From Minisyncoccota bacterium (GTDB lineage Bacteria > Patescibacteriota > Minisyncoccia > UBA6257 > GWB1-50-10), in the NCBI GenBank assembly GCA_041917695.1, contig JAYRXE010000037.1:536173-600172 (forward strand): a DNA stretch of 64,000 nucleotides, in the 5' to 3' direction. Made by a program: the position numbers and the translations under genes. Position 1 is the first letter of the stretch, and every line of letters begins with the position of its first letter. This document shows positions 26,458 through 59,216 of the stretch, one piece after another. The notes beneath the pieces are model-generated. The model was given only the letters and a program-made list of their open reading frames with translations. It was not told the origin of the DNA and made no database searches.

Positions 26458-26461
26458 GAGG

Positions 26462-26752
26462 CTATGGCCTGAACGGATTCGCTTTCCCCGGCGTCTCGCG
26501 GGGCGTCACCGGCGCGGCGTATTTCTCCAAGCTTTGGAACGACGGCGAACCGATTACCGCATCGGGGTTAAAACGAACTTTTGACAATTGGTTTATATTC
26601 TCGAGATTCTTCGGCGTCACCTGGTCGATAATCTCCGGCTTTTTGAAAAAGAGGAAATATGCGAGCACGAAGATGGCGACCACGATAAAGAGGGCGGTCA
26701 GCATCCCTATCCAATTCACCGGCTTCTTTTCTTCCTGGAGCAATATGGCCAT
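26462..26752 (-). CDS. small single-TM protein within the pilus operon
   Basis: 96 aa, one TM helix, tightly packed between pilO and pilB. Confidence 0.45.
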   Translation of the reverse strand: MAILLQEEKKPVNWIGMLTALFIVVAIFVLAYFLFFKKPEIIDQVTPKNLENINQLSKVRFNPDAVIGSPSFQSLEKYAAPVTPRETPGKANPFRP

Positions 26753-26758
26753 AGGCGG

Positions 26759-27313: not shown

Positions 27314-27314
27314 G

Positions 27315-32228: not shown

Positions 32229-32296
32229 TAGAATCATTATATCAGACCCCGTATTCCAACTCATTCGGGAAATATGTGGAAAAGTTAGCCTCAAAA

Positions 32297-32326
32297 CAAA
32301 AACCCGCCGGGCGGCGGGTTTTTGTT
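32297..32326 (-). terminator. intrinsic terminator
   Basis: aaacccgccgg-gcggcgggttt directly after the stop of the 522-aa gene. Confidence 0.6.
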
Positions 32327-33895
32327 TTATCGATATTGGAAACACCGGGCGGTACACCGGAGACCGCGAGCGCCACCACCCTTCATATTCATTTCCCAAT
32401 TAGTGCCGTTCACACGCACATTGCATTTACCAAATTGAATGGTGTCATCCGATTCGAAGCCAGTCAAAGCGCAAAAGTAATTTGCCGTTGGCAAAATCGT
32501 ATTAGTCAATTCCTGCCGATTAACCGACACCCACGTGAATTCCTGGAACTGCTGGGTGGGATTCGGCTCCTCGCAGACGAGCCAGCCCTGCGCATCAACT
32601 TTCAAGAACTTGCGGACGCCGATGCCGTTCACGTTGAAACACGTCGTAGCGAGTACGTTATCCAAGTTCACCTTGAGACCTCCCGTATGATTCGGATCGG
32701 TAATGGAAAGCGTTTTCCCGAATTCTTGCTTCAAAGAAACGGTGTCGGAGCCGTTCGGATGCGTAAGCTCGATTCTGCCGGGGCGGAAAGTTCCGCCGTA
32801 AGTACCGCCCACCTTGAGCACGCTCTCACTCCCGGAGGAACCAACGATCTGTACCGGACCGCTTTGGGCCGCGAGGCGATCCTTGATGAGCATCATGCCG
32901 TCCTGGCCGACGCTCAATTGGGTGGCGTTCGCATTGTTTACGAAAGAAAGCGTCCCGCCGATGTTTTTAAGGGTATACGGCGTCACGTTCGTCGGAGCTA
33001 ACTTCACATCGTTTTGTGCGGTCACGGCGCCTTGCGCAGTGAACGTTGCCTGGGCAGTAAGCGGACGTGCCGCCGTGACGTTCCCTGTCGCCGCATCTAT
33101 TGAAAGAGCGGTCGTCCCTCCCGCCTGGGCGTTTGCAGAGTTGATAAGACCGTTATTCGTTTGGTTGCCCCCTCCGCCGTTTGTCACCTGGAAATTCACG
33201 GCGTTTGCCGTCACTTGCGTATTGAAATTCACGCCGTTTGTCGCACCGACGCTCACGACCGTCGTCGTTGTATAGACGCCGCCGCGGCCGAGTGCCCAAA
33301 AATTCGCGGAGATGTTATTGATAGTCCCGCCTCCGCCGCCAACCTTCACCCAGCATCGTCCCGCCTGGGCGTTTGCCGAGGGAATGAACGCCTCCTGCTG
33401 GCCCTGTGCGCAGTTTGTTCCGCCCGTAAAAAGCCATAAATCACCATTATCGTAGGTTATGGTGCCGGCAGGCACTCCCGTTCCTAAAACAGTTGTCGAA
33501 TAGCTGGGGAGCACTACCCCCTTAGTCTGAATAAGAAACGGATTTGTGCTGTTTGTCAGCACGGTATATCCACTCGCTGATAAGTAAAATGAATTATTGC
33601 CCGGTTGCGAGCGCACGGAAGCGCCATCTTGTAATATTAGTCCACTTCCACTGTTCTTATTCGCCTCAAGGTAATCAACTTTAATGCCGGCACTTTTTGC
33701 TTGAAATGTCTGCCCTATATCAATAGGAGCGGTAGTGTTTCCACCTGGAAATTGCTGGGTGGGCGGCGTCCACGTCGAAGGACCGCGCTGACCAAATACC
33801 TGCGTCGCGGAAAAAAGAAGCACTCCCGCGAAAAGACCGGCTAAAAGGAATCTCGAAAGTTTCATAGGCTTTTTATCTTGCTTTAAGTATAGCAA
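32327..33895 (-). CDS. secreted Gly/Thr/Asn-rich protein (522 aa) with Cys-containing C-terminal domain
   Basis: Signal peptide MKLSRFLLAGLFAGVLLFSATQVFGQ; low-complexity repeats; C-terminal ...FCALTGFESDDTIQFGKCNVRVNGTNWEM... Confidence 0.55.
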   Translation of the reverse strand: MLYLKQDKKPMKLSRFLLAGLFAGVLLFSATQVFGQRGPSTWTPPTQQFPGGNTTAPIDIGQTFQAKSAGIKVDYLEANKNSGSGLILQDGASVRSQPGNNSFYLSASGYTVLTNSTNPFLIQTKGVVLPSYSTTVLGTGVPAGTITYDNGDLWLFTGGTNCAQGQQEAFIPSANAQAGRCWVKVGGGGGTINNISANFWALGRGGVYTTTTVVSVGATNGVNFNTQVTANAVNFQVTNGGGGNQTNNGLINSANAQAGGTTALSIDAATGNVTAARPLTAQATFTAQGAVTAQNDVKLAPTNVTPYTLKNIGGTLSFVNNANATQLSVGQDGMMLIKDRLAAQSGPVQIVGSSGSESVLKVGGTYGGTFRPGRIELTHPNGSDTVSLKQEFGKTLSITDPNHTGGLKVNLDNVLATTCFNVNGIGVRKFLKVDAQGWLVCEEPNPTQQFQEFTWVSVNRQELTNTILPTANYFCALTGFESDDTIQFGKCNVRVNGTNWEMNMKGGGARGLRCTARCFQYR

Positions 33896-33956: not shown

Positions 33957-34859
33957 TTACTTCACAACCGTCATTTTCCTTGCTTCAACAAAATCTTTTG
34001 CTTCTAACCGGTAAAAGTAGGTTCCACTTGCCAAGTGTGAAGCATCAACGTCGGCTTCATAGCTTCCTTTTCCCATCTCTCCGTCAACGAGCGTCTGCAC
34101 TTCGCGCCCGGCGATGTCATATACCTTTAAGGATACATGGCTTCGTTCGGGAATCGTGAAGGCAATCTTCGTCTTTGGATTGAACGGATTCGGATAGTTT
34201 TGACTGAGAGAGAACTCTTTAGCCGTCTGGTTTTGATTCTGAATGCCGGTAAGGCCTCCTTCAAAATCATCTACTACTGCTTGTGGTTGCCAAAATTGGG
34301 CAAAGGTCCAATAATCCCATTTTATTTTGCAACGTATCGAATCATTGGCGGGGGTGCCATTGAAATACAAATCAAACTTTATGCGAATAGCGCTAACCAT
34401 AGCAGGAGGGTTTTGGCCACCGATTGGAATCAGTTCTACTCCCCATGTGTTGGTTATTTCGCCCACTCCAAGTTGGATTGGACCCACCTCACAAAAATTC
34501 ACTCCATCACCTGAAATATAAAATGTGGTTTTCACATATACGTTCCCAACATAGGGATCAAGTTGAACCAATTTTTCGTAGACAACGCATTGCAGGTAAC
34601 TACTTCTTGATATTGAAGTCTGAAGATCTTTAGTTACTTCAAAACTTCCCTGCTGGAATGCGCGCCCTTCAAAGCAAACGGATCTCTGGCCATAATAATG
34701 ATCAGATTCGGATGTCATTTTAATGAATCCGATGTTTCCGGTTGTTGAAGTTACATACATTCCGTTTATGCCTTCCCCTTCTACTTGCGGGTCGGCAAAC
34801 GTTTGGAACACTCCTATAAATAAGAGAGCTCCAAAAAGAAGAAAACTTAAGAATTTCAT
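33957..34859 (-). CDS. secreted protein with T9SS (Por) type-A C-terminal sorting domain
   Basis: C-terminus SQNYPNPFNPKTKIAFTIPERSHVSLKVYDIAGREVQTLVDGEMGKGSYEADVDASHLASGTYFYRLEAKDFVEARKMTVVK is a near-consensus Por_Secre_tail; signal peptide; AT-rich. Confidence 0.65.
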   Translation of the reverse strand: MKFLSFLLFGALLFIGVFQTFADPQVEGEGINGMYVTSTTGNIGFIKMTSESDHYYGQRSVCFEGRAFQQGSFEVTKDLQTSISRSSYLQCVVYEKLVQLDPYVGNVYVKTTFYISGDGVNFCEVGPIQLGVGEITNTWGVELIPIGGQNPPAMVSAIRIKFDLYFNGTPANDSIRCKIKWDYWTFAQFWQPQAVVDDFEGGLTGIQNQNQTAKEFSLSQNYPNPFNPKTKIAFTIPERSHVSLKVYDIAGREVQTLVDGEMGKGSYEADVDASHLASGTYFYRLEAKDFVEARKMTVVK

Positions 34860-35021
34860 TCGAAACTCTCCTTTCTGTATTTATTTTTTTATTAATTATT
34901 TCTATCTTTATTATACCACATCCGTATGTTTTTTGCAATACATCCGTGGCAACTTGTCAAGGGTCTCTACAGCAAAGACGCTTCTCCCCTCCTCAAAGTT
35001 TCCCTTGCTTTTGAAATCCAC

Positions 35022-35537
35022 TTAAAACCCGCGTTTTTCTCGTTTTTTCAGTATTTCCTGGGTTTTCTCCATTACCCGCTCGTACTCCTTAACAGTCGAA
35101 AGACCAGCTTGCTTCCTTCTTTTTTCTAATTCCTTCTTATTCTCCACGGGAGCTAACTCAATTTTCCCCTTCTTGTTTCTTCGAAATTGCGTGCCATAGA
35201 TTTGCTTTTTCCCCTTATGGACGCATATCCGGTCGGTAAGAAACGCCTCGTCAATTTGGTTGAATCCGCAGTGAAAGAGGCAATTTTCCTGGAGCTCGGT
35301 GTCCGTTTGATGCTGTATGAGCAGCCAGAATTGATGGAGCGCTTTCGCCCCTACCATCTTCTTTGTCGGATAGCCGTGTTTTTCAATGATGTGCCGGACC
35401 TTGAATGTATGGATGTTATCTACGGCATATATGAGCCAGTTAAGCGGTCCCTTGCCGGGAGTGGCGAGATTGCGGGTCCGTTGATCCGCTTCATACATTT
35501 CCGCTATCTCGTGCTGGATTTCTTTTTTCATTTTCAT
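35022..35537 (-). CDS. hypothetical protein
   Basis: Start at MKMKKEI (rc ATG 35535-35537) overlapping the upstream gene stop (ATGA); no recognised domain. Confidence 0.45.
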   Translation of the reverse strand: MKMKKEIQHEIAEMYEADQRTRNLATPGKGPLNWLIYAVDNIHTFKVRHIIEKHGYPTKKMVGAKALHQFWLLIQHQTDTELQENCLFHCGFNQIDEAFLTDRICVHKGKKQIYGTQFRRNKKGKIELAPVENKKELEKRRKQAGLSTVKEYERVMEKTQEILKKREKRGF

Positions 35538-36109
35538 AAAACTTTTTTGACGCCGGCAAGATAGACGGCATCCATATCGTGTTCCGCTTCCGGAATCTCG
35601 ATTGCCCGCCATCCCTTTCGCCTCCCGAGCTTTTCCGCCCGTCCTTTAAGCACGGGGTGTTCCTTACTGCCGTAGAGCAACGTCACTTTTTTTGCGAGCA
35701 AGGGCGCATAGTCAAGTTTTTTCATTTCTCGCAACTGAATTGCGGAAAAATCGGAAAGTTCTTTCTTTTTATACCAATTCAAATCTTCGCCTAAAACGGG
35801 GGGCAAGGAACAAAGTAGTACATGCGTGAAGCGAACCCTCCTTGCAGCCAGATACGCTTCAAGTGCGCCTATGGAAAATCCCATAATCGTATCACGAGGC
35901 ATTGCGCTTGAGGATACTTGATTGATGATTCCATGGATAATTTCGGATAAGGGTGCGGGCCCTCCGAGGGAATATTTTCTATTTCTTGTGAAAAGCCGGA
36001 GGGGTATATAAGTATATTTTTTTGAAATGATTGCAATAAGGTTCCGATAATTTTCATCGGTAATCCGATGGCCCCATCCAGGCAAGATATAGATGTTTGG
36101 CTTCATCAC
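35534..36109 (-). CDS. alpha/beta-hydrolase fold protein (GxSxG)
   Basis: GFSIGA nucleophile elbow; ~190 aa. Confidence 0.5.
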   Translation of the reverse strand: MMKPNIYILPGWGHRITDENYRNLIAIISKKYTYIPLRLFTRNRKYSLGGPAPLSEIIHGIINQVSSSAMPRDTIMGFSIGALEAYLAARRVRFTHVLLCSLPPVLGEDLNWYKKKELSDFSAIQLREMKKLDYAPLLAKKVTLLYGSKEHPVLKGRAEKLGRRKGWRAIEIPEAEHDMDAVYLAGVKKVL

Positions 36110-36184
36110 TAGCTAGTATTCATTATGCCCCTTTTCGAGGTTCCGGCTCAAAAAATCTAACGCCACCCTTACTACCTCAACAAG

Positions 36185-37456
36185 CTAAATTAATACTTCC
36201 CGTGCAAAAGAATTCTTTTTGACCGGACCCACCACCGCAAGATTCATATTTTTATTCGTAAAAAGAGCCTTTGCTACTGCATGAATTTCAGCGCGGGTGA
36301 CTTTTTTATATCGCTGAATTATCTCTTCAATCGGCTCAATTTTCCCCTCCATAATTTCCTGTTCTCCCGAAAAAAGAGCCCAGTCTTCCGAAGTTTCGTT
36401 TGCTATACTCTGCCTTGCAATACTATATTCCTTCGTTCTCACTAATTCCTCTGAAGAAACGCCATTCTGTACGATGTCTCGCAGTTCATTGCGGATGACT
36501 TTCAAAACTGCAGAAAATCTTTGATTTTCTATTCCTCCCGCAATCGCAAAACATCCATGATCGGACCCTAAAATAGTTGTCGCCCCTATGCTATACGCAG
36601 CCCCCATCTCCCCATAGATTTTCTGCCATAATCGGGAACTCTCGGTACCCCCCAAGATGCTTTCCAAAACACGCACGGCGGAGTGCCTCTTGTCCGAAAC
36701 GGGAAACGCTCGAAATCCAAGCACGAAATTAGTCTGATTCGATTTTTTTCGCAAAATGTTTTCCACGAATCCTTGCTGATTTTCATCAACTCTTTTTTTG
36801 GGAATGACTTCTTTCCCCTCTTTGCCGGCAAATGCCTTAACAATCTCCTTTTGAATCATCGTTTGCGAAACATTCCCAGCGATTGAAATAACGATTTGGC
36901 TAGGCAGGTAATACCGCGCATGGTACGCACGAAGGTCCGCGGCGGAAATTTTTTTGATGCTTGTCGGAGTGCCTAATATTCTTCTCCCCGCCGCTTCCTG
37001 CGGGTAAAGCGTACTGTTGAACCTATCCCAGACGACGGACTGAGGATCGTCTTCATTCATGTTAATTTCCTCAATTACCACGCCTTTTTCTTTCGCAACA
37101 TCTGCGGCGTTCAGCGATGGATTGCAAATCACATCAAAGAGAACTTTTGATGCCGACTGGAAATCCTGGTTCGCCGCTTTCACGTAATAATAGGTACACT
37201 CATTTGAAGTGAAAGCCTCTGAAGAAGTACCTAGCGACTCAAAAGCCTGAGAAATAGCTCGATGATTTGGGTACTTTTTCGTTCCTCGAAAACACATATG
37301 CTCGAGAAAATGAGAGATTCCATTTTCTTGCTCGTTTTCATATTCGCTCCCGACCCGAACGAAAACAGCCGTGGTTACGGTAGCGCTTTCCGGCAAATGC
37401 GTATGGAGGAGGGTGAGGCCGTTTTTTAGTTTTGCTTTAGTCGTTTTAGGCATCAC
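36185..37456 (-). CDS. M16 family zinc peptidase (pitrilysin-like)
   Basis: Inverted zinc motif HFLEHM and downstream Glu; 423 aa. Confidence 0.75.
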   Translation of the reverse strand: MMPKTTKAKLKNGLTLLHTHLPESATVTTAVFVRVGSEYENEQENGISHFLEHMCFRGTKKYPNHRAISQAFESLGTSSEAFTSNECTYYYVKAANQDFQSASKVLFDVICNPSLNAADVAKEKGVVIEEINMNEDDPQSVVWDRFNSTLYPQEAAGRRILGTPTSIKKISAADLRAYHARYYLPSQIVISIAGNVSQTMIQKEIVKAFAGKEGKEVIPKKRVDENQQGFVENILRKKSNQTNFVLGFRAFPVSDKRHSAVRVLESILGGTESSRLWQKIYGEMGAAYSIGATTILGSDHGCFAIAGGIENQRFSAVLKVIRNELRDIVQNGVSSEELVRTKEYSIARQSIANETSEDWALFSGEQEIMEGKIEPIEEIIQRYKKVTRAEIHAVAKALFTNKNMNLAVVGPVKKNSFAREVLI

Positions 37457-37798
37457 GCTTATCCTACTGCGAAAAATTTAGAGGTACAACACTCTTCAAT
37501 AAAAAGAGTCGCAGTTATAGCGACTCTTTGTGCATCCATACTATCTTATCTGGGTTTTGGATGCGGCTTTGGTGTCGGTTTGGGCCTTGGCCTTCCCGGC
37601 GGATGATATCTGCCCCTTGGCATACTCTATGGCTCCTTTCTGCTTATTTATATTTATTAGCTCTCTACTGAGAGAAGATACTCAAGCAGGTACCTTTTTA
37701 ATTTCAAACCTAAACTCTCATTAAACTATAGCTCAAAGAATTAAAATGGCAATACCCTGGCGTACATTTGTCAAGATTCCTTATAGTTAAAGGCCACG

Positions 37799-37824
37799 AA
37801 AAACCCGCCGAATGGCGGGTTTTC
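37799..37824 (-). terminator. intrinsic terminator
   Basis: aaaacccgcc-gaat-ggcgggtttt. Confidence 0.6.
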
Positions 37825-37838
37825 TTGGGGTAAAGGAC

Positions 37839-39260
37839 TTATCGGCAATACCCGGCAATGTCCGTCCCTAAACAAATCGTGCACCCGAGCGCCGTCCAAC
37901 CATTGGTAACACCTGAAGGAACTTCATCAGGAACACCCACCCCTCCTGAAATGCTTCGCGGATCGCAGGTGGGAACCGAGTAGGCTACATGGCTACACGA
38001 GTTATTGGCATCAAATATAGCGCCCGATGTGCAGGTATAGGTTGGCTCAAAATCACTGCCAACGCCGCCTTCAGCTACCCCAAAAACTTCAGTGGTTTGT
38101 ATCTGACCGTTACCAGCGTCATATGATGCCCAACCCCCTTCGTTCATTCTATCGCAGTTATAATCAAAATCTTTTTCCGCGATGGGATTTATGAAATAGC
38201 TTGTCTGCCCGGGAAAGGCATTCGCATTATCGTCATGGCAATCAAGTCCCCCGTTCGGCAGCTCGCCAATATTCGGGTTCCACGGCCGCGAAGGCGAATC
38301 CTTCACGCGTACCTCAGGGGTGCACTGGTCGAGACATTCGTAGTGCATCGTACCAAGGTCGTCCGTAAACGTATCACTGTCGACGTCGTTGTACCACAAG
38401 AGCGCTTCCTTTATCTTTGCCGTCGAGCCGGTTTGGAGCGTTATCGCCCCGCTACTGATACGCAATGAGGCGTTATGGTCGGCATCGCCATTCCAAACAA
38501 GTGTTGAATTACCCGTAAGGTTGACGGTATTGTCTCCGAGCAACAAATCGCCGCCGTCAAAGCCCTCAACGCCCGTCGTCGGAGAACACGAACCCTGCAA
38601 ATTGCCATTCGCGTCGAAGACGCATTCAGGATCGGACCACGCGAGGGTGAGTGTGGCGGTATCGCCGTTAATGTCTTCCGCGACGAATTTCGTGTGATAG
38701 GTCTTCGTATGCGTGTCGTTCACGACCCATGCTCCTTCATATGAATACTCCATGAGCGCCTGCGCCTCGGCTTTCGAGACAAGCTGGTTCAAGACGCTTT
38801 CGGCGTAACCGTTTCCTTTATTGATGATAAGCGTGCCTTCATCGCTCACGAGATACGGCTGTGAACGGAAGTAATCCGCGGAAAGCGCTTTCGATTCTTT
38901 CATCGTAAGCGGAATCTCCTGCGTCTTTGAATCGGTGTCGATGACCGCCTTCACGCTTTTAAGCGCTACGGGACTCGCGATGCGCACCTGCATGAGCTGG
39001 GTATCGCCAACGCGCACCTTCAAGGGGCTCACGACGCCGCCCGTGAACTTCGGGTATTCCCCGGAGCTCGCGGTGAAGCGGTATTCGCCGTCGGTCGGCA
39101 ACTGCCACTCCTGCCCCCGGGCGTTTACGTAATACTCGCCGAGCTTGTTCGACGCATTGGGAACGAGGCCGTTCCAGAAATAATATCCGGCGACCAGAAG
39201 AAACGCGATGCCGACGACAACTGCGATCGTCGACTTCTCTTTTTGGGTAAAGTTTTTCAT
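37839..39260 (-). CDS. membrane-anchored extracellular Cys-rich protein (473 aa)
   Basis: N-terminal TM anchor; about 20 Cys in the C-terminal half; no known motif. Confidence 0.5.
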   Translation of the reverse strand: MKNFTQKEKSTIAVVVGIAFLLVAGYYFWNGLVPNASNKLGEYYVNARGQEWQLPTDGEYRFTASSGEYPKFTGGVVSPLKVRVGDTQLMQVRIASPVALKSVKAVIDTDSKTQEIPLTMKESKALSADYFRSQPYLVSDEGTLIINKGNGYAESVLNQLVSKAEAQALMEYSYEGAWVVNDTHTKTYHTKFVAEDINGDTATLTLAWSDPECVFDANGNLQGSCSPTTGVEGFDGGDLLLGDNTVNLTGNSTLVWNGDADHNASLRISSGAITLQTGSTAKIKEALLWYNDVDSDTFTDDLGTMHYECLDQCTPEVRVKDSPSRPWNPNIGELPNGGLDCHDDNANAFPGQTSYFINPIAEKDFDYNCDRMNEGGWASYDAGNGQIQTTEVFGVAEGGVGSDFEPTYTCTSGAIFDANNSCSHVAYSVPTCDPRSISGGVGVPDEVPSGVTNGWTALGCTICLGTDIAGYCR

Positions 39261-39439: not shown

Positions 39440-40870
39440 ATGAAAACGATATGTGCTTTAACTCTATTCATCCTGGGAAATCTTCTTTTTTCCCAGCCGT
39501 ATACGCTCGTTCCCGAGTGGAGCAAAAACTTCACCCTGGGCGGGAACTCGGATGATTTTAAAGGAGTCGTCGTGAACAACGCTGATTTCAGCGTTTTCGT
39601 AAACGGTAATATCAGCACCACGGGATTTTCCTCCAGTGGGTTGGTAAAGCTTTCGCCTGTTGGAGATTCATTATGGGCCGTAACAGACAGCATAAATTCC
39701 ACAAGCTCCAATTCTCAGCAAATGATATATCACGAAGCTAGCGGAAAAACATTTTATGTTTCAAACGGCACCCAGTATTACCTTATTTCTCGAAATAAGG
39801 ATACGCGCGCGATTGAAAACATAGTTGCCTTCCCTACTCTGATCCACCTTGGCGACTACGGAGACTCATTGGTTGCAATCACCCATGAATCAAACGGCAA
39901 GATTCTTATCCTTGATGCCAACGGCGCCACAAAGCGGCAGTTCAACCTGGGCTATAACACCAACGTGGGAACCTTCACGCTTCGCGTGTGCGGTACTCAT
40001 CTCTGGATTATCGGCCTTCAGAACACTCAAACCGGTTTCTGCGCCAAGTACAACCTTTTTACCGGCCAGGAATTATGGAGGGTAAGCGTGCCTCGCCTCA
40101 TCCGCCCCTTCGGCGATGTTGACTCGCTTGGAAACGCATACCTCGGCGGAAGCAGGACTGACACCTTGAATGCGGCAGTGCTGAGATACAAGTGCATGAA
40201 GCTCAGTCCTTCGGGAGCGATCCTGTGGGATAAGGAAGCCTTGGTAAACCTTACCGACGCTGCCAATAACAACAACTGGGTGAACGGCGTTGCCGTATCG
40301 CTCCAGAAAAACGTTGTGGTCTTGGTCGGCGAAGCCGGAAAGGACAGTTTGGTGAACGACGGAAAGCGCGCCGGATACATCCGCATATTGAACATCACCA
40401 ATGGAGATTCAGTCCTTGCCATGAAGGTGTACATAAACCCCGTGGCCGGTTGGAATCAAATCCAGGGCGTGACGTTCGATATATATGGAAAGATGTATGT
40501 GGTCGGAAAGACCCGAGACGTCCTCTTGAACCCGGACAACACCGGTTTCGTCAGGAAGCTCAGGATTGATTCCCTCACGGGAATCAATGACCCCAGCGAG
40601 AATGCGGAAACATTCTCACTTGCCCAGAACTATCCGAACCCGTTCAATCCTACGACCACCATCCGCTTCTCAATTCCGAAGAAATCAGCCGTGAAGATAA
40701 CGGTATTCGATATCTTAGGCAAAGAAATCGCGATAGTGGCACAGAAAGAATATGGCAGAGGCGTTCATGAGCTCGGTTTTGACGGCTCAAATCTTTCAAG
40801 CGGCATCTACTTTTACCGCCTGGAAGCCGACGGCTTCAGCGAAACCAAAAAAATGATTCTCGTGAAGTAG
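39440..40870 (+). CDS. secreted beta-propeller-like protein with T9SS (Por) type-A C-terminal sorting domain
   Basis: Signal peptide; C-terminus AQNYPNPFNPTTTIRFSIPKKSAVKITVFDILGKEIAIVAQKEYGRGVHELGFDGSNLSSGIYFYRLEADGFSETKKMILVK; AT-rich. Confidence 0.65.
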   Translation: MKTICALTLFILGNLLFSQPYTLVPEWSKNFTLGGNSDDFKGVVVNNADFSVFVNGNISTTGFSSSGLVKLSPVGDSLWAVTDSINSTSSNSQQMIYHEASGKTFYVSNGTQYYLISRNKDTRAIENIVAFPTLIHLGDYGDSLVAITHESNGKILILDANGATKRQFNLGYNTNVGTFTLRVCGTHLWIIGLQNTQTGFCAKYNLFTGQELWRVSVPRLIRPFGDVDSLGNAYLGGSRTDTLNAAVLRYKCMKLSPSGAILWDKEALVNLTDAANNNNWVNGVAVSLQKNVVVLVGEAGKDSLVNDGKRAGYIRILNITNGDSVLAMKVYINPVAGWNQIQGVTFDIYGKMYVVGKTRDVLLNPDNTGFVRKLRIDSLTGINDPSENAETFSLAQNYPNPFNPTTTIRFSIPKKSAVKITVFDILGKEIAIVAQKEYGRGVHELGFDGSNLSSGIYFYRLEADGFSETKKMILVK

Positions 40871-47957: not shown

Positions 47958-49145
47958 TTACTTCATTTCAAAATACCCCCCGCCAAACGTATAGCCTCCT
48001 CCGAAAGCGCAGAGTATGGCCTTTGTTCCGCTTTTTAGCATATCTCTTTCCCACGCCTCGCACATCAAAGTCGGAATGGTCGCGGACGTGGTATTCCCGT
48101 ACTGCTCGATATTGTTGATGACGATTCCCTTATACCCCGCCTTCACGAGACTGTCCGTAATCGCCTCATTCATCCGTAGATTCGCCTGATGGAAAAAGAA
48201 AATATCTATCTCCTCAAGCGTTTTACCGTTCTGATTCAATATCCGGGTGATCAAATCCCCTCCGGGAACTTTGGAGGCGCTGTTTGAAAAAACGAGCGGT
48301 ACGATATCCTTGAATACCTTTTTACCGTCCATCCACAGCTTGTGGAGCCACTGGTCCAACGCCTCGGGCGTCAGCGGATGCTTTGAACCGCCGTATTTTG
48401 CGATTATCTTCGCCCATTCGCTTCCCTGTACGCCGAAATAGAAAGATTCGGGCGTAAACCACGATTCCTCTTCGGAACACGCTTCAAGCACAATTGCTCC
48501 CGCCCCGTCTCCAAGCAACGGATAAAAATTCCGGTCATTGGGGTTCGTGGTGGTCGTCATCTTGTCCGCTCCGATAACAAGCACGCGTTTGCACAGTCCG
48601 CTTCGGATGAGCGCATACGCGCGTATCAAAGCGGTTACAAAGCTCGTGCATGCCGTCATGTTGTCGGAGCCGTAGAGCGTCTGAAGCGGATTCCCCGGAG
48701 AAATGCTCCGCCTTCCCAATTTCTCCGCAATCAGCGAAAAAGTCGGCGGCGAATACAGATAATCGGGGCTCACCGTTCCAAGCTCAATAAGGTCTATCTC
48801 ATCGATTGAAACATGTGCGTTCCGCAACGCCCGCTCCGCGGCGCATACTGCCAAATCGCTCGTGGCGATTCCTGCAGCGGCCTCACAGCGTTCGCGTATG
48901 CCGGTACGTTCCACAATCCATGCGTCTGAGGTGTCAAAATCCTTAAAAAATTTCTCGCGCTCGTTCATGAATTCTTCATCCGTAAGCTTCCGTTCATTCG
49001 TCATCTTCTCCATTTTTTTGGCGAAGATCGCCTCCCCGCGGTCGTGCAGTTCGGCCGAAAGGACGTCGTTCGTAAGGATACGTCCGGGAACTCCGTCATG
49101 CCCTGGAAATGCTTTGCCAAAACCGATAATGCGTACTCCTGTCAT
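47958..49145 (-). CDS. 3-oxoacyl-ACP synthase III (FabH) family / thiolase-fold condensing enzyme
   Basis: Active-site Cys context SDNMTACTSFVTAL, C-terminal GGGYTFGGGYFEM; longer than canonical FabH. Confidence 0.65.
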   Translation of the reverse strand: MTGVRIIGFGKAFPGHDGVPGRILTNDVLSAELHDRGEAIFAKKMEKMTNERKLTDEEFMNEREKFFKDFDTSDAWIVERTGIRERCEAAAGIATSDLAVCAAERALRNAHVSIDEIDLIELGTVSPDYLYSPPTFSLIAEKLGRRSISPGNPLQTLYGSDNMTACTSFVTALIRAYALIRSGLCKRVLVIGADKMTTTTNPNDRNFYPLLGDGAGAIVLEACSEEESWFTPESFYFGVQGSEWAKIIAKYGGSKHPLTPEALDQWLHKLWMDGKKVFKDIVPLVFSNSASKVPGGDLITRILNQNGKTLEEIDIFFFHQANLRMNEAITDSLVKAGYKGIVINNIEQYGNTTSATIPTLMCEAWERDMLKSGTKAILCAFGGGYTFGGGYFEMK

Positions 49146-52858: not shown

Positions 52859-52960
52859 TAATTAATACGATACGCGCGACTTTTCGTTACTCTACCGTCA
52901 TTTTATCACACCTTTTCCGCTCCGCATTGACCGCTGAAAAAGCAGGAAATAAAATGATTC

Positions 52961-53527
52961 TTGTCGTACCTATCAACAATCATCCATTTTATGAGGAATA
53001 TCTTTAGAAAACGGACGGGAGCGACGGCGCTCCAAACGGTTCTCTCGGTTTTAGCGGTCGTCGCGGTCGGCGTCGGTGCGTGGTTTGCCTTCTCCAAGAA
53101 CAAAACCGCCCCTCAGCCCGAGGGAATCACCCCTTCGACCAACGAGCCTGCAGCGAATGGCTCGGAGAATGCCGCCACTTCGTCTGCGTCAGAAAATACG
53201 AACGGCGGGACCGCCAATGCCTCCGGCTATAAGGACGGCACCTACACGGCGACCGGAAATTACCTTTCTCCCGGCGGCGCGGAATCCATCGGCGTTACGC
53301 TTACCTTGAAAGACGGCGTAGTCACCTCAGCTGCCGTGCAAACGATGGGACGCGAACGCGAATCGCGCGAGATGCAAAAAGCATTCGCGGGAGGATTCAA
53401 AACGTATGTTATCGGGAAATCCATCGCGACGCTTTCGGTGGACAAAGTTTCAGGCTCATCGCTCACCCCGAAGGGATTCAACGATGCGGTGGTGAAAATC
53501 CGCGCACAGGCCCAGGTCCAAGGCTAA
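52961..53527 (+). CDS. membrane-anchored FMN-binding domain protein
   Basis: N-terminal TM, low-complexity linker, then an FMN_bind-like domain (YKDGTYTATGNY...GAESIGVTLTLKDGVVTSAAV). Confidence 0.6.
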   Translation: MSYLSTIIHFMRNIFRKRTGATALQTVLSVLAVVAVGVGAWFAFSKNKTAPQPEGITPSTNEPAANGSENAATSSASENTNGGTANASGYKDGTYTATGNYLSPGGAESIGVTLTLKDGVVTSAAVQTMGRERESREMQKAFAGGFKTYVIGKSIATLSVDKVSGSSLTPKGFNDAVVKIRAQAQVQG

Positions 53528-53530
53528 GCC

Positions 53531-54415
53531 ATGCGCGCGCCGGACTTCACGTTCGAAGCTATCGGCACCGCGTGGTCCATCCACGTAACGAGCGAGCTCT
53601 CTAGCGAGGCTCGCTCGCTTCTTTTTGAAGACATCCTTCACCGCATCGGCGAATTCGACAGGAACTATTCCCGTTTCCGCGCCGATTCGCTCGTGACGAA
53701 AATGTCCCGCGAGGCCGGAACGTACGAACTTCCCGACGATGCCGGGCCGATGCTCGAGCTCTACCGCAATTTGTATGAGCTCACGGGCGGACTCATGACC
53801 CCCCTCGTCGGGCGCCTGATGGAGGAGGCGGGCTACGACGCTTCCTATTCGCTCGTTACGCGCGAGCTCCACGAACCTCCGGCGTGGGAAACGGCGCTTT
53901 CGTACGAGCCTCCCACCCTCTCCGTCCTCGAGCCGGTCTTGCTTGATTTCGGCGCGGCGGGGAAAGGCTATCTCGTCGATCTCGTAGGCGGGGTGATGCG
54001 GAAGCATGGCGTCCGTTCGTACACCATCGATGCGGGGAGCGACATCCTCCACGCGAGCGAAACGGGAGAATCGCTTCGCATCGGCCTTGAAAACCCCGAG
54101 AACACCCGCGAAGTCGTCGGCGTTACCCCGCTTGGCGAGGGCGCGCTCTGCGCCTCCGCGGGAAACCGGCGCACGTGGGGCGACTTCCACCACATCATCC
54201 ATCCCCGCCTTCTCGCTTCCCCGAAGCATATTGCGGGAACGTGGGTAAAAGCGGAGACGGCACTTCTCGCCGACGGTCTTGCCACCGCGCTCTTTTTCGT
54301 CGAGCCCGCCGTGCTCGGGAAGCGCTACGAATTCGATTACGCCATCCTCTCCAGCGACAAATTGCTTTCCGTTTCGGAAGGATTCTCGGGAGATTTTTTT
54401 GCGGATTCCCGGTAA
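53531..54415 (+). CDS. FAD:protein FMN transferase (ApbE family)
   Basis: ApbE-like core with GAAGKGYLVD and the C-terminal D/T region. Confidence 0.7.
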   Translation: MRAPDFTFEAIGTAWSIHVTSELSSEARSLLFEDILHRIGEFDRNYSRFRADSLVTKMSREAGTYELPDDAGPMLELYRNLYELTGGLMTPLVGRLMEEAGYDASYSLVTRELHEPPAWETALSYEPPTLSVLEPVLLDFGAAGKGYLVDLVGGVMRKHGVRSYTIDAGSDILHASETGESLRIGLENPENTREVVGVTPLGEGALCASAGNRRTWGDFHHIIHPRLLASPKHIAGTWVKAETALLADGLATALFFVEPAVLGKRYEFDYAILSSDKLLSVSEGFSGDFFADSR

Positions 54416-54429
54416 GGTAAACTTATTTC

Positions 54430-55941
54430 ATGCGATATATCGATTCCCTCCTTAATTCGGTTACGATGTACCGACTTGTCTTGTACGGTCTTACGGCGCT
54501 TGCCGCGTGCGCGTTCCTGTTAAGTCTTTTCGGCGCCGTACACTATCCCCCGCTCAATCTTTTCTTTTCGCTTCTTATTCTCGTCGCCGTCGCCTGGGGG
54601 TTGAACGAGCTTCTTGCGCGCCTCTTCAAAGCGCCGGTAAACGTCGAATCGGCGTACATCACCGCCTTCATCCTTTTCTTCCTTCTCACGCCCCCGGGAA
54701 ACTTTTTCGAGGCGTTCCTTACCGCCGGCGCGGGAGCGCTCGCCATCGCTTCGAAATATTTCTTCGTCTACAAGAAAAAACATTTTTTGAATCCCGCGGC
54801 GGCGGGCGCGTTCCTGCTCGGCCTTTTCGGCTTCGGCCTTTCGGTATGGTGGGTCGCGACGCCGATCCTTTCCGTTCTCACCGCCATCGTCGGGTTTTTG
54901 GTCGCGCGGAAAATCCGCCGTCTGCCCCTCTACTTCACGTTCATTCTCTTCGCGCTTCTCTCCGTCGCGCTCTTTGCGTATTCAAACGGCGCAAACCCGT
55001 GGCAAACCGCGCTTGAGTCGCTCCTTTCCTGGCCCGTCTTCTTCCTCGCGGGATTCATGCTTACGGAGCCGCTCACGACCCCGCCCACCCGTTCGCTCCA
55101 GATCATCTACGGCCTCCTCGTCGGCCTGCTCTTTGCGCTCCCCTTCGAAGCGGGTCCCGTCTTTTCCTCGCCCGAACTCGCCCTGCTTCTCGGAAACGTA
55201 TTCTCGTTTTTCGTAAGTATGAAGGGACGCCTTGTGCTTACCCTCGCGGGTAAACGCACGGAAGGAATCGATATATACGACTTCGCTTTTTCCGCCGACC
55301 GGAAGCTCGCATTCCAGCCGGGCCAGTACCTGGAGTGGACGCTTCCGCGCGCTTCCCCCGATTCCCGCGGAAACCGGCGGTATTTCACGATTGCCTCTTC
55401 CCCGACCGAAAAAGATTTGCACCTTGGCGCCCGCGTTATGGAAAAGTCATCGAGCTTCAAGCGGGCGCTCCTCGCGCTCCGCGAAGGCGAAAAAATATTC
55501 GCGGGAGAACTGCGCGGAGACTTTACCCTGCCGGAAGACAAAAATCGGAAGCTCGCCTGGATCGGCGGGGGCGTGGGAATCACGCCGTTCCGGAGCATGG
55601 CGAAATATCTTACGGATACTTCCGAGAAAAGGGATATCGTCCTTTTCTACGCCTGCGTGAAACGTGAAAGCTTCGCCTACGGCGACATCTTCGATGATGC
55701 ACAGCGCGTAGGGATTAAAACCCGATACGTCATCACGGACCCGCATAATCTTCCGGAAAATTGGGACGGCCTCGCGGGACCGCTGAGCCCGGGAATGCTC
55801 ACGGATGCGCTCCCGGACTGGAAAGAGCGCCTGTTTTACCTCTCCGGACCCCAGGGAATGGTGGACGCGTACCGCGATATGCTCCGGGGAATGGGCGTGC
55901 ATCGGAAAAACATCTGTACGGATTATTTCCCCGGATTTTAA
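54430..55941 (+). CDS. polytopic membrane domain fused to an FAD/NAD(P)-binding ferredoxin-reductase-type domain
   Basis: ~270-aa multi-TM N-terminus; C-terminal RRYFTIASSP (FAD) and GGGVGITPF (NAD) motifs. Confidence 0.6.
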   Translation: MRYIDSLLNSVTMYRLVLYGLTALAACAFLLSLFGAVHYPPLNLFFSLLILVAVAWGLNELLARLFKAPVNVESAYITAFILFFLLTPPGNFFEAFLTAGAGALAIASKYFFVYKKKHFLNPAAAGAFLLGLFGFGLSVWWVATPILSVLTAIVGFLVARKIRRLPLYFTFILFALLSVALFAYSNGANPWQTALESLLSWPVFFLAGFMLTEPLTTPPTRSLQIIYGLLVGLLFALPFEAGPVFSSPELALLLGNVFSFFVSMKGRLVLTLAGKRTEGIDIYDFAFSADRKLAFQPGQYLEWTLPRASPDSRGNRRYFTIASSPTEKDLHLGARVMEKSSSFKRALLALREGEKIFAGELRGDFTLPEDKNRKLAWIGGGVGITPFRSMAKYLTDTSEKRDIVLFYACVKRESFAYGDIFDDAQRVGIKTRYVITDPHNLPENWDGLAGPLSPGMLTDALPDWKERLFYLSGPQGMVDAYRDMLRGMGVHRKNICTDYFPGF

Positions 55942-56116
55942 AAAATCCCCGCCTCAGGCGGGGATTTTTCATGTACCAAAAGGAAGTCGCACATCGGCAT
56001 GGTTATTCGTATATATAGATGTTGACTCTTACGCGGCGTAATACCTTACTCTTCCGCATGGTGACGCCTCGAAGCGGTCAGGCGTACGTCGACACCAAAA
56101 AACGCTCACTCTTCAT

Positions 56117-56872
56117 ATGACCTATTCAGTGAAAAAACTCGCACGGCTCGCAAACGTAAGCGTCCGCACGCTCCATTACTACGACACCATCGGGCTTTTG
56201 ACCCCCAAACGCGTGGCGGGCAATAATTACCGCGAATACGGCGAAGCGGAACTTTTAAAGCTCCAGCAAATCCTTTTCTTCCGCGAGCTCGATTTTCCGC
56301 TCGAGGAAATCAAGCGCATCCTGAACGAACCCGGATTCGACATGCTCGCCGCCCTCCGCGACCAGAAACGGCTCATCGAGATGCGGAAAAACCGCCTCCT
56401 GAATCTCATGAAGACCATCGAGCGGACCATGAAGAAAATACAAAACGAAACGACTATGGAAGACAAAGAACTCTACGGCAATTTCTCCAAAGAGGAGATG
56501 GACGAGTACGCGCGCGAAGCGAAGGCCCGCTGGGGCACCACGGACGCGTACAAAGAGTCCCAGGAACGGACTAAGAACTGGACGAAGGAAGACTACGCGC
56601 GCGTAGCGAAGGCCGGCGACGAATTGATGAAAAAAATCGCGTCGCATATGGCGCTCGGCGCCGCTTCTCCCGAAGTGCAGGCGCTCATTGCCGAGCATTA
56701 CAATAGCCTCCGCGCCTTCTACGAGCCGAACTTGGAAATGTACGTCGGCCTCGCGAATATGTACGTGGACGATCCCCGCTTCCGCGCGACGTTCGAGCGG
56801 TACGACAAAGACCTGCCCGAATTCATGCGCGACGCGATGCTTGCGTACGTGGAGAAACAAAAAACCGGCTAA
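56117..56872 (+). CDS. MerR family transcriptional regulator (TipAL-like, C-terminal TipAS-type effector domain)
   Basis: N-terminal HTH YSVKKLARLANVSVRTLHYYDTIGLL; long C-terminal helical domain. Confidence 0.8.
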   Translation: MTYSVKKLARLANVSVRTLHYYDTIGLLTPKRVAGNNYREYGEAELLKLQQILFFRELDFPLEEIKRILNEPGFDMLAALRDQKRLIEMRKNRLLNLMKTIERTMKKIQNETTMEDKELYGNFSKEEMDEYAREAKARWGTTDAYKESQERTKNWTKEDYARVAKAGDELMKKIASHMALGAASPEVQALIAEHYNSLRAFYEPNLEMYVGLANMYVDDPRFRATFERYDKDLPEFMRDAMLAYVEKQKTG

Positions 56873-56946: not shown

Positions 56947-57699
56947 TCAGTACTTCAGGAGTACATTCTCGATAAGGTCGAGAGCGAATTCGGTTGTCTT
57001 GTGAGACGAGAACACAATCCCTGAAGGGTGACCCGCACTATTGCGAACACCGAGCTTCTCGTCGAGAATCTTTCGCACGTCCTTCGATATGACATTTGCA
57101 CTACGCATGAGCTCTATAACACGCGACTCCTTCAATTCTGCGAAGTCATCGTAGGCAACAACGGGCTTCATCTTCTTGTCGGAATGTGCCGCAATTGCAG
57201 CATTAAATTCCGTGAGGTATTTGCCGAAAGTGTATTTCTGCAGGTGATCCATCGTCAGAACCCAAACCATGATGATCGTCGCACGATACGATTCCACTCG
57301 ATAGCAGCGTATCGCTTCTTCCAAGAAGTTGCGCTCCTGAGAGTCCGTGAGTTTTGGGACAAGATCCAGAAGTTGTTTTCCGACTTGTACCCGCTTTGGC
57401 TCTGAATCGACGGCAATACGGATTTCATCGAACACCGAACGTTCAAGCCGATAGCCTTTCGCGTGCTTGATGTAGCGGCCGCCTTTCTTGTTTACCTCTT
57501 CGGAGAGATAGACAGAGAGACGTGAGTAGGGACGGAGATCGAGTAGTTCCATGCACTCCTCGATATCGGCCACAGCCGCACTTTCGGCAGTTGGCTGAGT
57601 AAGCAGGTAGTAGGCAAGATAATCAACCTGTTTCGTTGCCGACCAACTAGCAAAGTCAGGGAAGCGTGTGACGAATAGATTTAATTCTTCGCGAGTCAT
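56947..57699 (-). CDS. hypothetical protein with C-terminal Rx4H (HEPN-like) motif; candidate toxin/abortive-infection effector
   Basis: C-terminal ...LGVRNSAGHPSGIVFSS... (R-x4-H); lower GC than flanks; third gene of an overlapping three-gene cassette. Confidence 0.45.
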   Translation of the reverse strand: MTREELNLFVTRFPDFASWSATKQVDYLAYYLLTQPTAESAAVADIEECMELLDLRPYSRLSVYLSEEVNKKGGRYIKHAKGYRLERSVFDEIRIAVDSEPKRVQVGKQLLDLVPKLTDSQERNFLEEAIRCYRVESYRATIIMVWVLTMDHLQKYTFGKYLTEFNAAIAAHSDKKMKPVVAYDDFAELKESRVIELMRSANVISKDVRKILDEKLGVRNSAGHPSGIVFSSHKTTEFALDLIENVLLKY

Positions 57700-58130
57700 G
57701 TGGTTTTCTTGCTAAACCCCTTCTGCACAATTTCTTCACCACTGCGCGTCAGCACCCATGCTTTGAGGCTGCTCTTCTTCTCTTTTTCCTCCATAAGGTG
57801 ACCTTTTGCCACGCACATGTTCGCTTTATCGTTGATATTGGCCGGAACGGGTTCTTTGGCAGCGCGAAATCCTTTTTCGAGGTCGGCTCCGTTGAAAGGA
57901 GTAACACCATCATGATGTTCGAGGTAATATCCGATCGCGAGAGTCATCTGCACCGCGTTTCCGGGAGCACGGTCGATGATGAATTCCTTTATTGACATCT
58001 TCTTTTCGGTTGGTCGTGTGATGACCGGCTCGGTTGATCGCGGGCTATCCTCCAGGCGAGCAACACGCTCACCCAAGCCCTCAACCGAGGAGAGAATTTC
58101 TTCGAGGATTTTCTTCATCTCTGGGTCCAT
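57696..58130 (-). CDS. hypothetical protein (cassette gene 2)
   Basis: 4-bp overlap with the downstream gene; no recognised domain. Confidence 0.4.
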   Translation of the reverse strand: MDPEMKKILEEILSSVEGLGERVARLEDSPRSTEPVITRPTEKKMSIKEFIIDRAPGNAVQMTLAIGYYLEHHDGVTPFNGADLEKGFRAAKEPVPANINDKANMCVAKGHLMEEKEKKSSLKAWVLTRSGEEIVQKGFSKKTT

Positions 58131-58132
58131 AA

Positions 58133-58537
58133 CTATGCGTTTTTTGTTACCCCTTTCTCGAGACGTTCAATGACCGCATCAACGTGCCGGTTAGGGATCT
58201 CGTAATTCTTTCCACTGCCCGCAAGGAAGCTGTCCTTCCTGAGCTTCTGAATGAGCGGATCGACGGTGCCTTTCGGCAATTCAGTCTTCTCATGCACTTC
58301 CTTACCGGAAGTACCTGCGTCTTCGATAACCCCCTCGGCCTTAAGGAGCTTTTTCACGAGGCAGTAAGCGAGAACTTTTTCCTCATTTTTGAGCGCCTTA
58401 CCCCCTTTAGTGTAGAACACACTGTCTCCCCCGCGCTGAATACTAAGTATCGGCTTGAGCGCATTTACGGCCCGCGTCGTATCGAATGCGCCGCCGTCCG
58501 TGTAAAGCTCCTCGAGCAATGATTTTTTGTCTGTCAT
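58133..58537 (-). CDS. hypothetical protein (cassette gene 1)
   Basis: 2-nt gap to the next gene; no recognised domain. Confidence 0.4.
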   Translation of the reverse strand: MTDKKSLLEELYTDGGAFDTTRAVNALKPILSIQRGGDSVFYTKGGKALKNEEKVLAYCLVKKLLKAEGVIEDAGTSGKEVHEKTELPKGTVDPLIQKLRKDSFLAGSGKNYEIPNRHVDAVIERLEKGVTKNA

Positions 58538-59129: not shown

Positions 59130-59216
59130 CGGAGGCGGAAGGATTCGAACCTTCGGTCCGGTTCCCCGGACAACTTCTTAGCAGGAAGTTGCTTTCGACC
59201 GCTCAGCCACGCCTCC
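59130..59216 (-). tRNA. tRNA-Ser (GCT), long variable arm
   Basis: Acceptor GGAGGCG/CGCCUCC, anticodon loop CUGCUAA, variable arm UGUCCGGGGAACCGGACC, T-loop UUCGAAU. Confidence 0.8.

Follow-up and report, generated by a model that had tools for sequence, protein, structure and literature searches.

Three adjacent genes (g1, g2, and g3) in the 64-kb window, by which we mean the whole stretch of DNA analyzed, probably encode an NQR/RNF-like flavinylation-associated system. In such a system, a two-subunit transmembrane complex served by a dedicated flavin transferase would export electrons from NAD(P)H. The class has been described by genome analysis (Méheust 2021, eLife, PMC8238504; Huang 2024, PMC10979944). 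An earlier note on this DNA, made from the sequence alone, had proposed a compact membrane redox system. That system is real but was already defined in the literature in 2021 and 2024; as both its architecture and its proposed function are published, the discovery is incremental. The note had also called the genes unexpected in a minimal-metabolism organism. This view did not hold: the published members of the class are mostly from Actinobacteria and CPR (PMC8238504), and the homologs with a named source came from CPR, so its occurrence in a CPR host is not unexpected. Homologs of LigA place the host itself among CPR of the Parcubacteria type.

The three genes are co-oriented, as had been read from the sequence, with + strand ORFs at 52961-53527, 53531-54415, and 54430-55941. 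The main features of the cluster are as follows.

52927..52955, + strand: promoter-like site TTGACC-17 nt-TAAAAT, agreeing with 10 of 12 consensus positions (a consensus match only)
52991..53527, + strand: g1, FMN_bind protein anchored in the membrane; 178 aa when read from ATG 52991 (longest ORF from TTG 52961)
53531..54415, + strand: g2, ApbE-family FAD:protein FMN transferase, 294 aa, without signal peptide or lipobox (by Pfam ApbE)
54430..55941, + strand: g3, 503 aa, NqrB/RnfD-like membrane domain fused to an FAD/NAD(P)H domain of FNR type (by profiles and fold)
55941..55969, + strand: intrinsic terminator directly 3' of the g3 stop, with a 13-bp hairpin, AAAAAUCCCCGCC-UCA-GGCGGGGAUUUUU

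The intergenic gaps are short (4 nt between g1 and g2 and 14 nt between g2 and g3), and the terminator hairpin is strong, with a folding energy of -20.9 kcal/mol (z = -5.4) that was equaled by none of 200 shuffles. Judged by these gaps, the promoter-like site, and the terminator, g1, g2, and g3 form one operon. The promoter-like site lies within a 130-nt intergenic region that has a divergent GH18 gene on its far side. The genes flanking the cluster are this GH18 gene and a MerR/TipAS regulator. No FMN riboswitch or other upstream RNA element was found, as an Rfam gathering scan gave only 12 tRNAs. The true start of g1 is most likely ATG 52991 rather than TTG 52961, because the -10 box ends at 52955 and because P0121, a database protein 99% identical to g1, begins at the position equivalent to this ATG. 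The start of g3 at 54430 is supported by the near invariance of D5, L8, N9, and T12.

The domain calls of the earlier note (FMN_bind, ApbE, and membrane-FNR) were borne out by Pfam matches and by folds. The g3 protein matched NQR2_RnfD_RnfE (PF03116) at residues 154 to 261 (33.2 bits; cutoff, 27.7) and NAD_binding_1 (PF00175) at residues 378 to 482 (48.3 bits; cutoff, 22), and comparison of folds also confirmed the fusion. These are the features by which Méheust 2021 defined the class operationally: PF03116 at the N terminus and PF00175 at the C terminus of one protein, encoded in a flavinylation-associated gene cluster (here with g1 and g2 immediately upstream). An NqrB/RnfD-like membrane domain was one of the options that the note had offered for a profile search. 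Since the membrane half is of this kind, g3 does not belong to the siderophore-interacting or sulfite-reductase types that had been named as counterevidence. An exact look-up of the g3 sequence found it not to be on record. The protein is divided as follows.

54430..55224, + strand: membrane domain (residues 1-265), with 10 predicted transmembrane segments (N-in/C-in) and conserved KKHxFNPAA and MLTEPLTTPP
54826..54861, + strand: predicted outer-face loop spanning residues 133-144, in which W140 and W141 are invariant, from topology prediction
55231..55938, + strand: cytoplasmic FNR-type domain (residues 268-503), with RYFTIAS (FAD), GGxGITP (NAD(P)H), YLSGP, and an aromatic C-terminal DYFPGF

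The C-terminal half has the features of FNR-type proteins (R-x-[YF]-[ST]-x-x-S, GGxGxxP, an aromatic C terminus, and a two-domain fold). Positions bearing on the preference for NADH versus NADPH vary across the g3 family. In the membrane half, the alignment skips NqrB residues ~211 to 288, with ~29 residues of g3 corresponding to the ~77 that surround the flavinylated Thr. This agrees with the description in Huang 2024, in which the NqrB/RnfD flavinylation site is not conserved and the complex has two structural subunits only; no other Nqr/Rnf subunits occur in the window. The window g3 contains no [ST]G[AS][ST] motif, which rules it out as an ApbE substrate. Loops rich and poor in K+R alternate cleanly along g3, and the loop with the two tryptophans (WW loop) has a mean K+R of 0.02. 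By this pattern, the WW loop is predicted to lie outside and the FNR domain inside. The WW loop takes the place of the much longer NqrB/RnfD loop with the flavinylated Thr, and by analogy with the AF-multimer model in PMC10979944, the flavin of g1 probably docks here.

The g1 protein qualifies as FMN_bind (PF04205, the domain of NqrC, RnfG, and PplA-type ApbE substrates) by profile and fold. The Pfam match is borderline (22.3 bits; cutoff, 22), and most members of the window-lineage g1 family fall below this Pfam profile. The fold search also gave FMN_bind, and the best structural match was 8p2a_A, a small flavinylated FMN-binding domain, rather than NqrC. When the g1 family profile was compared with PDB sequences, it found no solved FMN_bind protein, only spurious transmembrane or low-complexity matches. 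Three features stand out.

53024..53095, + strand: N-terminal hydrophobic helix, a signal anchor (residues 12-35; helix in the AF2 model)
53237..53518, + strand: globular FMN_bind domain (residues 83-176)
53441..53461, + strand: predicted flavinylation motif D-K-V-S-G-S-S, from homolog conservation

The canonical motif of ApbE substrates is D-x-x-[ST]-G-A-[ST] (review, PMC12052999). The flavinylation motif anticipated by the earlier note is present only as a variant with SGSS in place of SGA[ST]. It fits all specified canonical positions but one, the change being Ala to Ser at position -1. The near-invariant KVSGSSLTPxGF of the g1 family sits where NqrC and RnfG have their SGAT motif, and V153, S154, G155, S156, S157, L158, T159, and P160 are each conserved in 98 to 121 of 121 g1 homologs. 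Ser replaces Ala in 120 of the 121, and the leading Asp is present in 46. In published mutants, changing the motif Asp to Ala had a minor effect, and changing the Ala to Val left ~50% of flavinylation (PMC12052999). FMN is predicted to be attached to Ser157, which is Ser167 when the 188-aa ORF is numbered.

The g2 protein matched Pfam ApbE (PF02424) at 120 bits. Its ATG lies 4 nt past the g1 stop, and the ApbE domain begins at residue 12, which corresponds to profile position 2. The sequence aligns with the solved ApbEs 5mgy and 1vrm (FHHIIHP versus YHHILDP and ADGLATAL versus ADALSTAG). The His of HHI(I/L)xP and the ADGL(A/S)TAL segment are conserved; the roles of these residues are taken from the literature. 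With neither an N-terminal signal peptide nor a lipoprotein signal, g2 does not have the typical form of an extracytoplasmic ApbE. A hydrophobic N-terminal leader was likewise absent from all 60 ApbEs adjoining g3 homologs (signal and leader calls were based on hydropathy).

Related loci were collected with a single-sequence contig scan, which gave 5, and an alignment-based metagenome scan, which gave 80. Neighboring genes were found with family HMMs, as tblastn searches with g1 and g2 had missed most of them. Among the 57 related loci with enough flanking DNA, an ApbE gene, a g1-type gene, or both adjoined the fusion gene in 48, and such conserved synteny indicates that the gene cluster is not due to chance. 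A second HMM revealed canonical FMN_bind partners (type B) in many of the remaining loci. Partners with the canonical motif occurred with a short ApbE in 29/29 cases, and window-type partners occurred with a long ApbE in 12/12. This perfect covariation of motif and ApbE subtype supports an enzyme-substrate relationship. The family comprises 1,897 clusters at 50% identity with E <= 1e-30; in 2021, 127 gene clusters of the NQR/RNF-like class were counted (PMC8238504).

The locus shares with the published class the fusion, the adjacent ApbE and FMN_bind partner, the two subunits, and the loss of the NqrB-type site, and we found no difference in kind. Three points appear to go beyond Méheust 2021 and Huang 2024. 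The window-lineage partner has SGSS instead of SGA[ST], the family is far larger, with ~1,900 clusters versus 127, and the ApbE appears leaderless throughout.

A leaderless ApbE beside a substrate that looks exported does not fit easily with the idea that an exported domain is flavinylated. In a rival reading, the flavin module faces the cytoplasm, with g1 oriented N-out/C-in and ApbE inside, and the complex is a membrane-bound, NAD(P)H-dependent reductase that acts on a substrate within the cell or the membrane and is not an exporter. Cytoplasmic ApbEs with cytoplasmic substrates are known, for example, for the Klebsiella fumarate reductase (PMC12052999). Such an orientation would fit the missing leaders, both here and in the 60 related loci, and the weak charge bias around the g1 anchor (typically 2 positive residues before it and 1 or 2 after). 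We nevertheless consider it improbable. K/R residues immediately precede the g1 helix, and a long S/T/P/N-rich linker follows (residues 36-80, disordered and of low pLDDT in the AF2 model), as is typical of exported tethers. The type-B partners carry classical MKK-hydrophobic N termini, the substitute for the NqrB flavin loop is predicted to be on the outer face, and the published AF-multimer model (PMC10979944) sets the flavin site of the partner at the NqrB-like flavin site. A hydrophobic N-terminal segment was found in 120/121 g1 homologs. For an exported g1, we tentatively suggest that a cytoplasmic ApbE may put FMN on the C-terminal linear motif before or during Sec-dependent export. Tat export of preflavinylated g1 was ruled out, as RR occurs in the N region of just 3 of 121 homologs.

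We then compared the locus with better-known relatives. As in the Na+-translocating NADH:quinone oxidoreductase NqrA-F (Vibrio cholerae 7xk3), ApbE would act as a maturation factor. NqrA-F, however, has six subunits, whereas the window encodes two, without NqrA, NqrD, NqrE, and the Fe-S centers. In g3, the NqrB-like and NqrF-like portions make up a single protein that has lost the NqrB flavinylation loop, and neither a quinone acceptor nor ion pumping is indicated. With only NqrB-like, NqrC-like, and NqrF-like parts in the window, the locus belongs to neither Na+-NQR nor Rnf. Compared with the RnfA-G complexes (Azotobacter vinelandii 8ahx and Clostridium tetanomorphum 7zc6), it lacks RnfA, RnfB, RnfC, and RnfE as well as the ferredoxin-binding/Fe-S module, and the donor would be set by the FNR domain. 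Rnf is reversible and energy coupled, whereas electron flow here is presumed to be one-way. Fusions of a ferric reductase domain to an FNR domain (NOX, e.g., SpNOX, or MsrQ-like proteins with an NAD-binding domain) hold two hemes in a six-helix domain; the membrane domain of g3, whose NqrB/RnfD fold is unrelated, presumably carries flavins.

The same comparisons bear on whether the locus could be a fragmentary or minimal Nqr or Rnf ion pump, or an NADH:quinone oxidoreductase, that returns electrons to a cytoplasmic or membrane acceptor with ion coupling. Ion translocation has been linked to the NqrB/RnfD subunit, and the g3 membrane domain retains invariant polar residues (N59, N71, E73, K109, H118, N121, and E213) that would suit such a role. 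Pumping is very unlikely all the same: no NqrA/C/D/E- or RnfA/B/C/E/G-type genes were detected beside the fusion gene in the window or in 89 related loci, the FMN loop of NqrB/RnfD is deleted, and the window has no genes for quinone biosynthesis. To our knowledge, CPR bacteria generally lack quinones.

The earlier note had likened the genes both to Nqr/Rnf-like redox modules and to the flavin-based extracellular electron transfer (EET) of Gram-positive bacteria. The relation to Nqr and Rnf was upheld, but the locus is not of the Listeria EET type (Ndh2, demethylmenaquinone, EetA/B, PplA, and FmnB/ApbE). By analogy with Listeria monocytogenes, an ApbE-family enzyme would flavinylate a small surface-anchored FMN_bind protein, and electrons would pass to extracellular acceptors of a single-membrane cell; the presence of both genes and the structural match of g1 to 8p2a_A speak for this likeness. 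However, none of the ~50 annotated ORFs of the window encodes Ndh2, EetA, EetB, DmkA/B, FmnA, or a quinone biosynthesis enzyme. Listeria electrons cross the membrane via Ndh2, demethylmenaquinone, and EetA/B, whereas here the membrane partner is a single NqrB/RnfD-FNR fusion. Furthermore, FmnB is an exported lipoprotein, and the window ApbE is leaderless. A Listeria-type reading of the locus is thus effectively refuted.

Among the neighbors in the 89 related loci, there was no conserved acceptor gene (VIT1, reductase, or cytochrome); the recurrent neighbor clusters consisted of antisense shadow ORFs, the type-B FMN_bind partner, and two-component regulators. These data bear on a narrower role for the same complex, namely, assimilatory reduction of extracellular Fe(III) for uptake, with no function as a general electron sink. 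Growth of Bifidobacterium breve under iron limitation has been linked to apbE, through a transposon mutant, and to SifE, an FMN-binding membrane protein of an iron uptake cluster (PMC5449479); this support is indirect and stems from a different system. We regard the specialized iron role as rather doubtful, as no VIT1, Feo, or other iron transport gene occurs in the 64-kb window and no iron gene recurs in the 89 related loci.

For the NQR/RNF-like system that we favor, the published proposal for the class is one-way electron flow from NAD(P)H to the outside, and by analogy the window proteins may work as follows. Cytoplasmic NAD(P)H would donate electrons to FAD in the C-terminal part of g3, the FNR-type domain. 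Electrons would cross the membrane via flavin(s), presumably held noncovalently, in the NqrB/RnfD-like domain and then pass to FMN covalently attached to Ser157 of g1, docked at the vacated outer-face site. ApbE (g2) would have installed this FMN from FAD. From g1, electrons would move on to an extracytoplasmic acceptor, for which Fe(III), a soluble flavin or quinone, O2, and an exported reductase are candidates. For a CPR cell lacking a respiratory chain, the most straightforward benefit would be regeneration of NAD(P)+, reduction of iron, or both.

The window offers a clean and complete operon that is suited to expression work. The puzzle of its biogenesis, a flavin transferase without an export signal and a substrate that looks exported, is directly testable. 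Flavinylation before export, if true, removes the need to export FAD, and the extracytoplasmic flavoproteins of CPR and related single-membrane bacteria would be made by an undescribed pathway. The SGSS motif and the long ApbE subtype of the window lineage would likewise represent a distinct, coevolved specificity pair. If these readings are correct, surveys that counted only proteins with signal peptides and Pfam FMN_bind matches have substantially underestimated how common flavin-based electron export is in CPR. Members of CPR/Patescibacteria are regarded as fermenters that depend on hosts and have no respiratory chain. With a widespread two-protein device that carries electrons of NAD(P)H to the cell surface, they could reoxidize cofactors, reduce iron, or exchange electrons with a host or mineral.

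The three genes lie on the forward strand with gaps of 4 nt (g1/g2) and 14 nt (g2/g3), preceded by a promoter-like sequence and followed by a terminator hairpin (folding energy, -20.9 kcal/mol; z = -5.4).

52927-52955 (+), promoter-like TTGACC-17-TAAAAT (consensus match)
52961-53527 (+), g1, membrane-anchored FMN_bind protein, longest ORF
52991-53527 (+), g1 as adopted (178 aa), ATG start shared with P0121
53531-54415 (+), g2, ApbE-family FAD:protein FMN transferase, ORF
54430-55941 (+), g3, membrane-FNR fusion, ORF
55941-55969 (+), 13-bp hairpin and then a U-run, immediately 3' of the g3 stop

We took g1 as 52991-53527 because the database protein P0121, 99% identical to it, begins at ATG 52991. 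A divergently oriented GH18 hydrolase gene lies on one side and, in its own transcription unit, a MerR/TipAS regulator on the other; g1-g2-g3 is a self-contained three-gene operon. The MerR/TipAS-type gene (56117-56872, +) lies directly downstream; related loci often have two-component (about 10 to 11 loci) or MarR regulators nearby instead (e.g., L006, L007, and L008), and no regulator is conserved across the window and these loci.

The g3 protein exceeded the Pfam thresholds for both NQR2_RnfD_RnfE and NAD_binding_1, and its AlphaFold model was confident (pLDDT 90.4; pTM 0.81). A profile of the membrane half, searched against the whole PDB, matched only RnfD and NqrB (E of ~1e-5). The FNR motifs R-x-F-T-x-x-S, GGxGITP, and SGP and the aromatic C terminus were invariant in 45 homologs. 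The profile alignment skipped NqrB residues ~211 to 288, the segment bearing the flavinylated Thr; about 29 residues take its place in g3, and no [ST]G[AS][ST] motif occurred anywhere in the protein. Across the family, K+R-rich loops (1-12, 66-71, 112-121, 162-164, and 263-270) alternated cleanly with K+R-poor ones (34-40, 86-91, 133-144, 186-189, and 236-247). As loop 263-270 abuts the FNR domain, it is cytoplasmic. The predicted topology has ten membrane segments with both termini inside; in it, loop 133-144, in which W140 and W141 are invariant, faces outward. This loop stands in for the NqrB/RnfD flavin loop, and its position is the one expected if the covalent FMN of g1 docks from outside.

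These features match a published system class. Méheust et al. (2021; PMC8238504) defined the NQR/RNF-like system as a flavinylation-associated cluster encoding a PF03116-PF00175 fusion. Huang et al. (2024; PMC10979944) described only two subunits and a nonconserved NqrB/RnfD flavinylation site; their AlphaFold-multimer model placed the flavinylation site of the partner at an apparent noncovalent flavin site of the NqrB-like subunit. Both the fusion and the nonconserved NqrB-type site occur in the window g3, and the operon agrees with the class in every testable respect. The earlier note's observation and functional reading of a three-gene redox module are borne out. Its view that the module is unexpected in a minimal-metabolism organism does not hold, since the class to which the operon belongs was already defined by bioinformatics and is typical of CPR, where it is no surprise. 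No quinone, NDH-2, cytochrome, VIT1/Feo, flavin-transport, or other Nqr/Rnf genes were found in the window.

Named LigA homologs (58 to 62% identity) were all from Parcubacteria-type CPR (Minisyncoccia, Paceibacterota, Jorgensenbacteria, Colwellbacteria, and Wolfebacteria). Housekeeping genes in the window include LigA, a GatA-like amidase, PheS, TyrS, ClpP, and a short IF-2, along with 12 tRNAs and a type IV pilus cluster (20983-28977, -) interspersed with ORFs lacking a Pfam match.

20983-21882 (-), prepilin peptidase
22391-23596 (-), PilC-like T2SSF
23600-24670 (-), PilT-like ATPase
24718-26457 (-), PilB
27871-28977 (-), PilM

Three large ORFs (29727-32399, 32327-33895, and 37839-39260, all -; 890, 522, and 473 aa) had no Pfam match at E <= 1e-5; the first two adjoin the pilus cluster and could encode pilus-associated or surface proteins. 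Two proteins (33957-34859, -; 39440-40870, +) were assigned a Por_Secre_tail domain, the C-terminal sorting domain of T9SS, and between them GC drops to 0.44 (~34000-38000; ~0.53 elsewhere in the window). This Bacteroidota-type signal is odd in a Parcubacteria-type genome; the DNA here may have been acquired horizontally. Three consecutive small ORFs (56947-58537, -; 250, 144, and 134 aa, the first without a Pfam match), located between the MerR gene and tRNA 59130-59216, might be a mobile or defense-type insertion next to that tRNA. A PduO-type ATP:cob(I)alamin adenosyltransferase-family protein (4200-4763, -) and a FabH-like ketoacyl-ACP synthase III (47958-49145, -) come as a mild surprise in a reduced CPR genome.

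The predicted structure of g1 has an N-terminal hydrophobic helix (residues 12 to 35), then a disordered linker rich in S/T/N/P, and a globular domain predicted with confidence (residues 83 to 176; pLDDT of ~95). N-terminal anchors were present in 120/121 homologs; they are not of the Tat type, as RR occurred in the N-terminal region of only 3. A sequence search with the family profile found no solved structure. The Pfam FMN_bind match was marginal (22.3 to 22.5 bits; cutoff, 22); of 35 family members, only 15 matched at E <= 0.01. Most g1-type proteins (P0121 to P0240; alignment A3) have no precomputed PF04205 match, so Pfam-based surveys will miss this substrate family in CPR.

The flavinylation motif that the earlier note proposed to locate has a putative counterpart in altered form. 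An essentially invariant V-S-G-S-S-L-T-P-x-G-F segment (121 homologs) occupies the position of SGAT in NqrC and RnfG, with the Ala of the canonical D-x-x-[ST]-G-A-[ST] motif (PMC12052999) replaced by Ser in 120/121 homologs. The leading Asp is kept in the window g1, yet in only 46/121 homologs. Flavinylation at Ser157 (53459-53461) is plausible, because the reaction is little affected by an Asp-to-Ala change, drops by half with Ala-to-Val, and can use Ser as the acceptor (PMC12052999).

Full-length g3 homologs number in the thousands at ~50% identity. Among 1.84 billion representatives, 1,897 clusters (50% identity) scored E <= 1e-30, the top 150 all being full-length fusions. We searched 89 related loci with family HMMs, 57 of which had sufficient flank for neighbor counts. 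A g1-type gene and ApbE adjoined g3 in 33, ApbE only in 12, g1 only in 3, and neither in 9. In most ApbE-only loci the partner proved to be of a second type, with the canonical motif (D-[IV]-[IV]-SGAT) and an N terminus of the classical MKK-hydrophobic form. Partner types and ApbE subtypes covaried perfectly: canonical-motif partners accompanied a ~248-aa ApbE starting MKQTRxIMGMP (29/29) and window-type partners a ~290-aa ApbE starting FEAIGTxW (12/12). This covariation is good indirect evidence that ApbE acts on the adjoining FMN_bind protein and also sets the window within a distinct coevolving lineage (KVSG[SA]SLT partner; examples from the two lineages are L019 242-706, L035 3726-4244, and, for ApbE, L017 4249-4995). 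The 248-aa ApbE falls short of the 266 positions of the Pfam ApbE model. One locus labeled "uncultured Gammaproteobacteria" (L004; CAZGGU010000026.1) has the full triad at 44 to 55% identity to the window genes and is probably a misbinned CPR contig or a lateral transfer.

The g2 protein is an ApbE (Pfam score, 120 bits) that, aligned to solved ApbEs, keeps the conserved His (FHHIIHP versus YHHILDP) and the ADGLATAL segment. There is no space for a signal peptide, because the profile starts at residue 12 and the ATG lies 4 nt beyond the g1 stop. None of 60 ApbEs adjoining g3 homologs had an N-terminal hydrophobic leader, even with the longest possible ORF considered; their putative substrates are nevertheless anchored at the N terminus (120/121 g1 homologs). 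The ApbE of Salmonella must be in the periplasm, but cytoplasmic ApbEs for cytoplasmic substrates exist (PMC12052999). A leaderless ApbE in the NQR/RNF-like system is not discussed in PMC8238504 or PMC10979944. The 2021 census dropped ApbE and FMN_bind genes without predicted signal peptides and used Pfam FMN_bind (PMC8238504), so leaderless ApbEs and Pfam-negative partners would have been undercounted; this may be why few clusters, and little flavinylation in CPR, were reported.

The FMN_bind domain could lie on the cytoplasmic side, a possibility opposed by the predicted g3 topology, in which the replacement loop is on the outer face. ApbE could also be exported by an unconventional route. 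Alternatively, and only tentatively, the C-terminal linear motif of g1 might receive its FMN in the cytoplasm, before export; ApbE is known to act on 7-residue tags (PMC12052999). The leaderless ApbE found throughout, together with the variant-motif lineage, is the most interesting remainder of the locus analysis. If true, cytoplasmic flavinylation before export would be a new biogenesis route.
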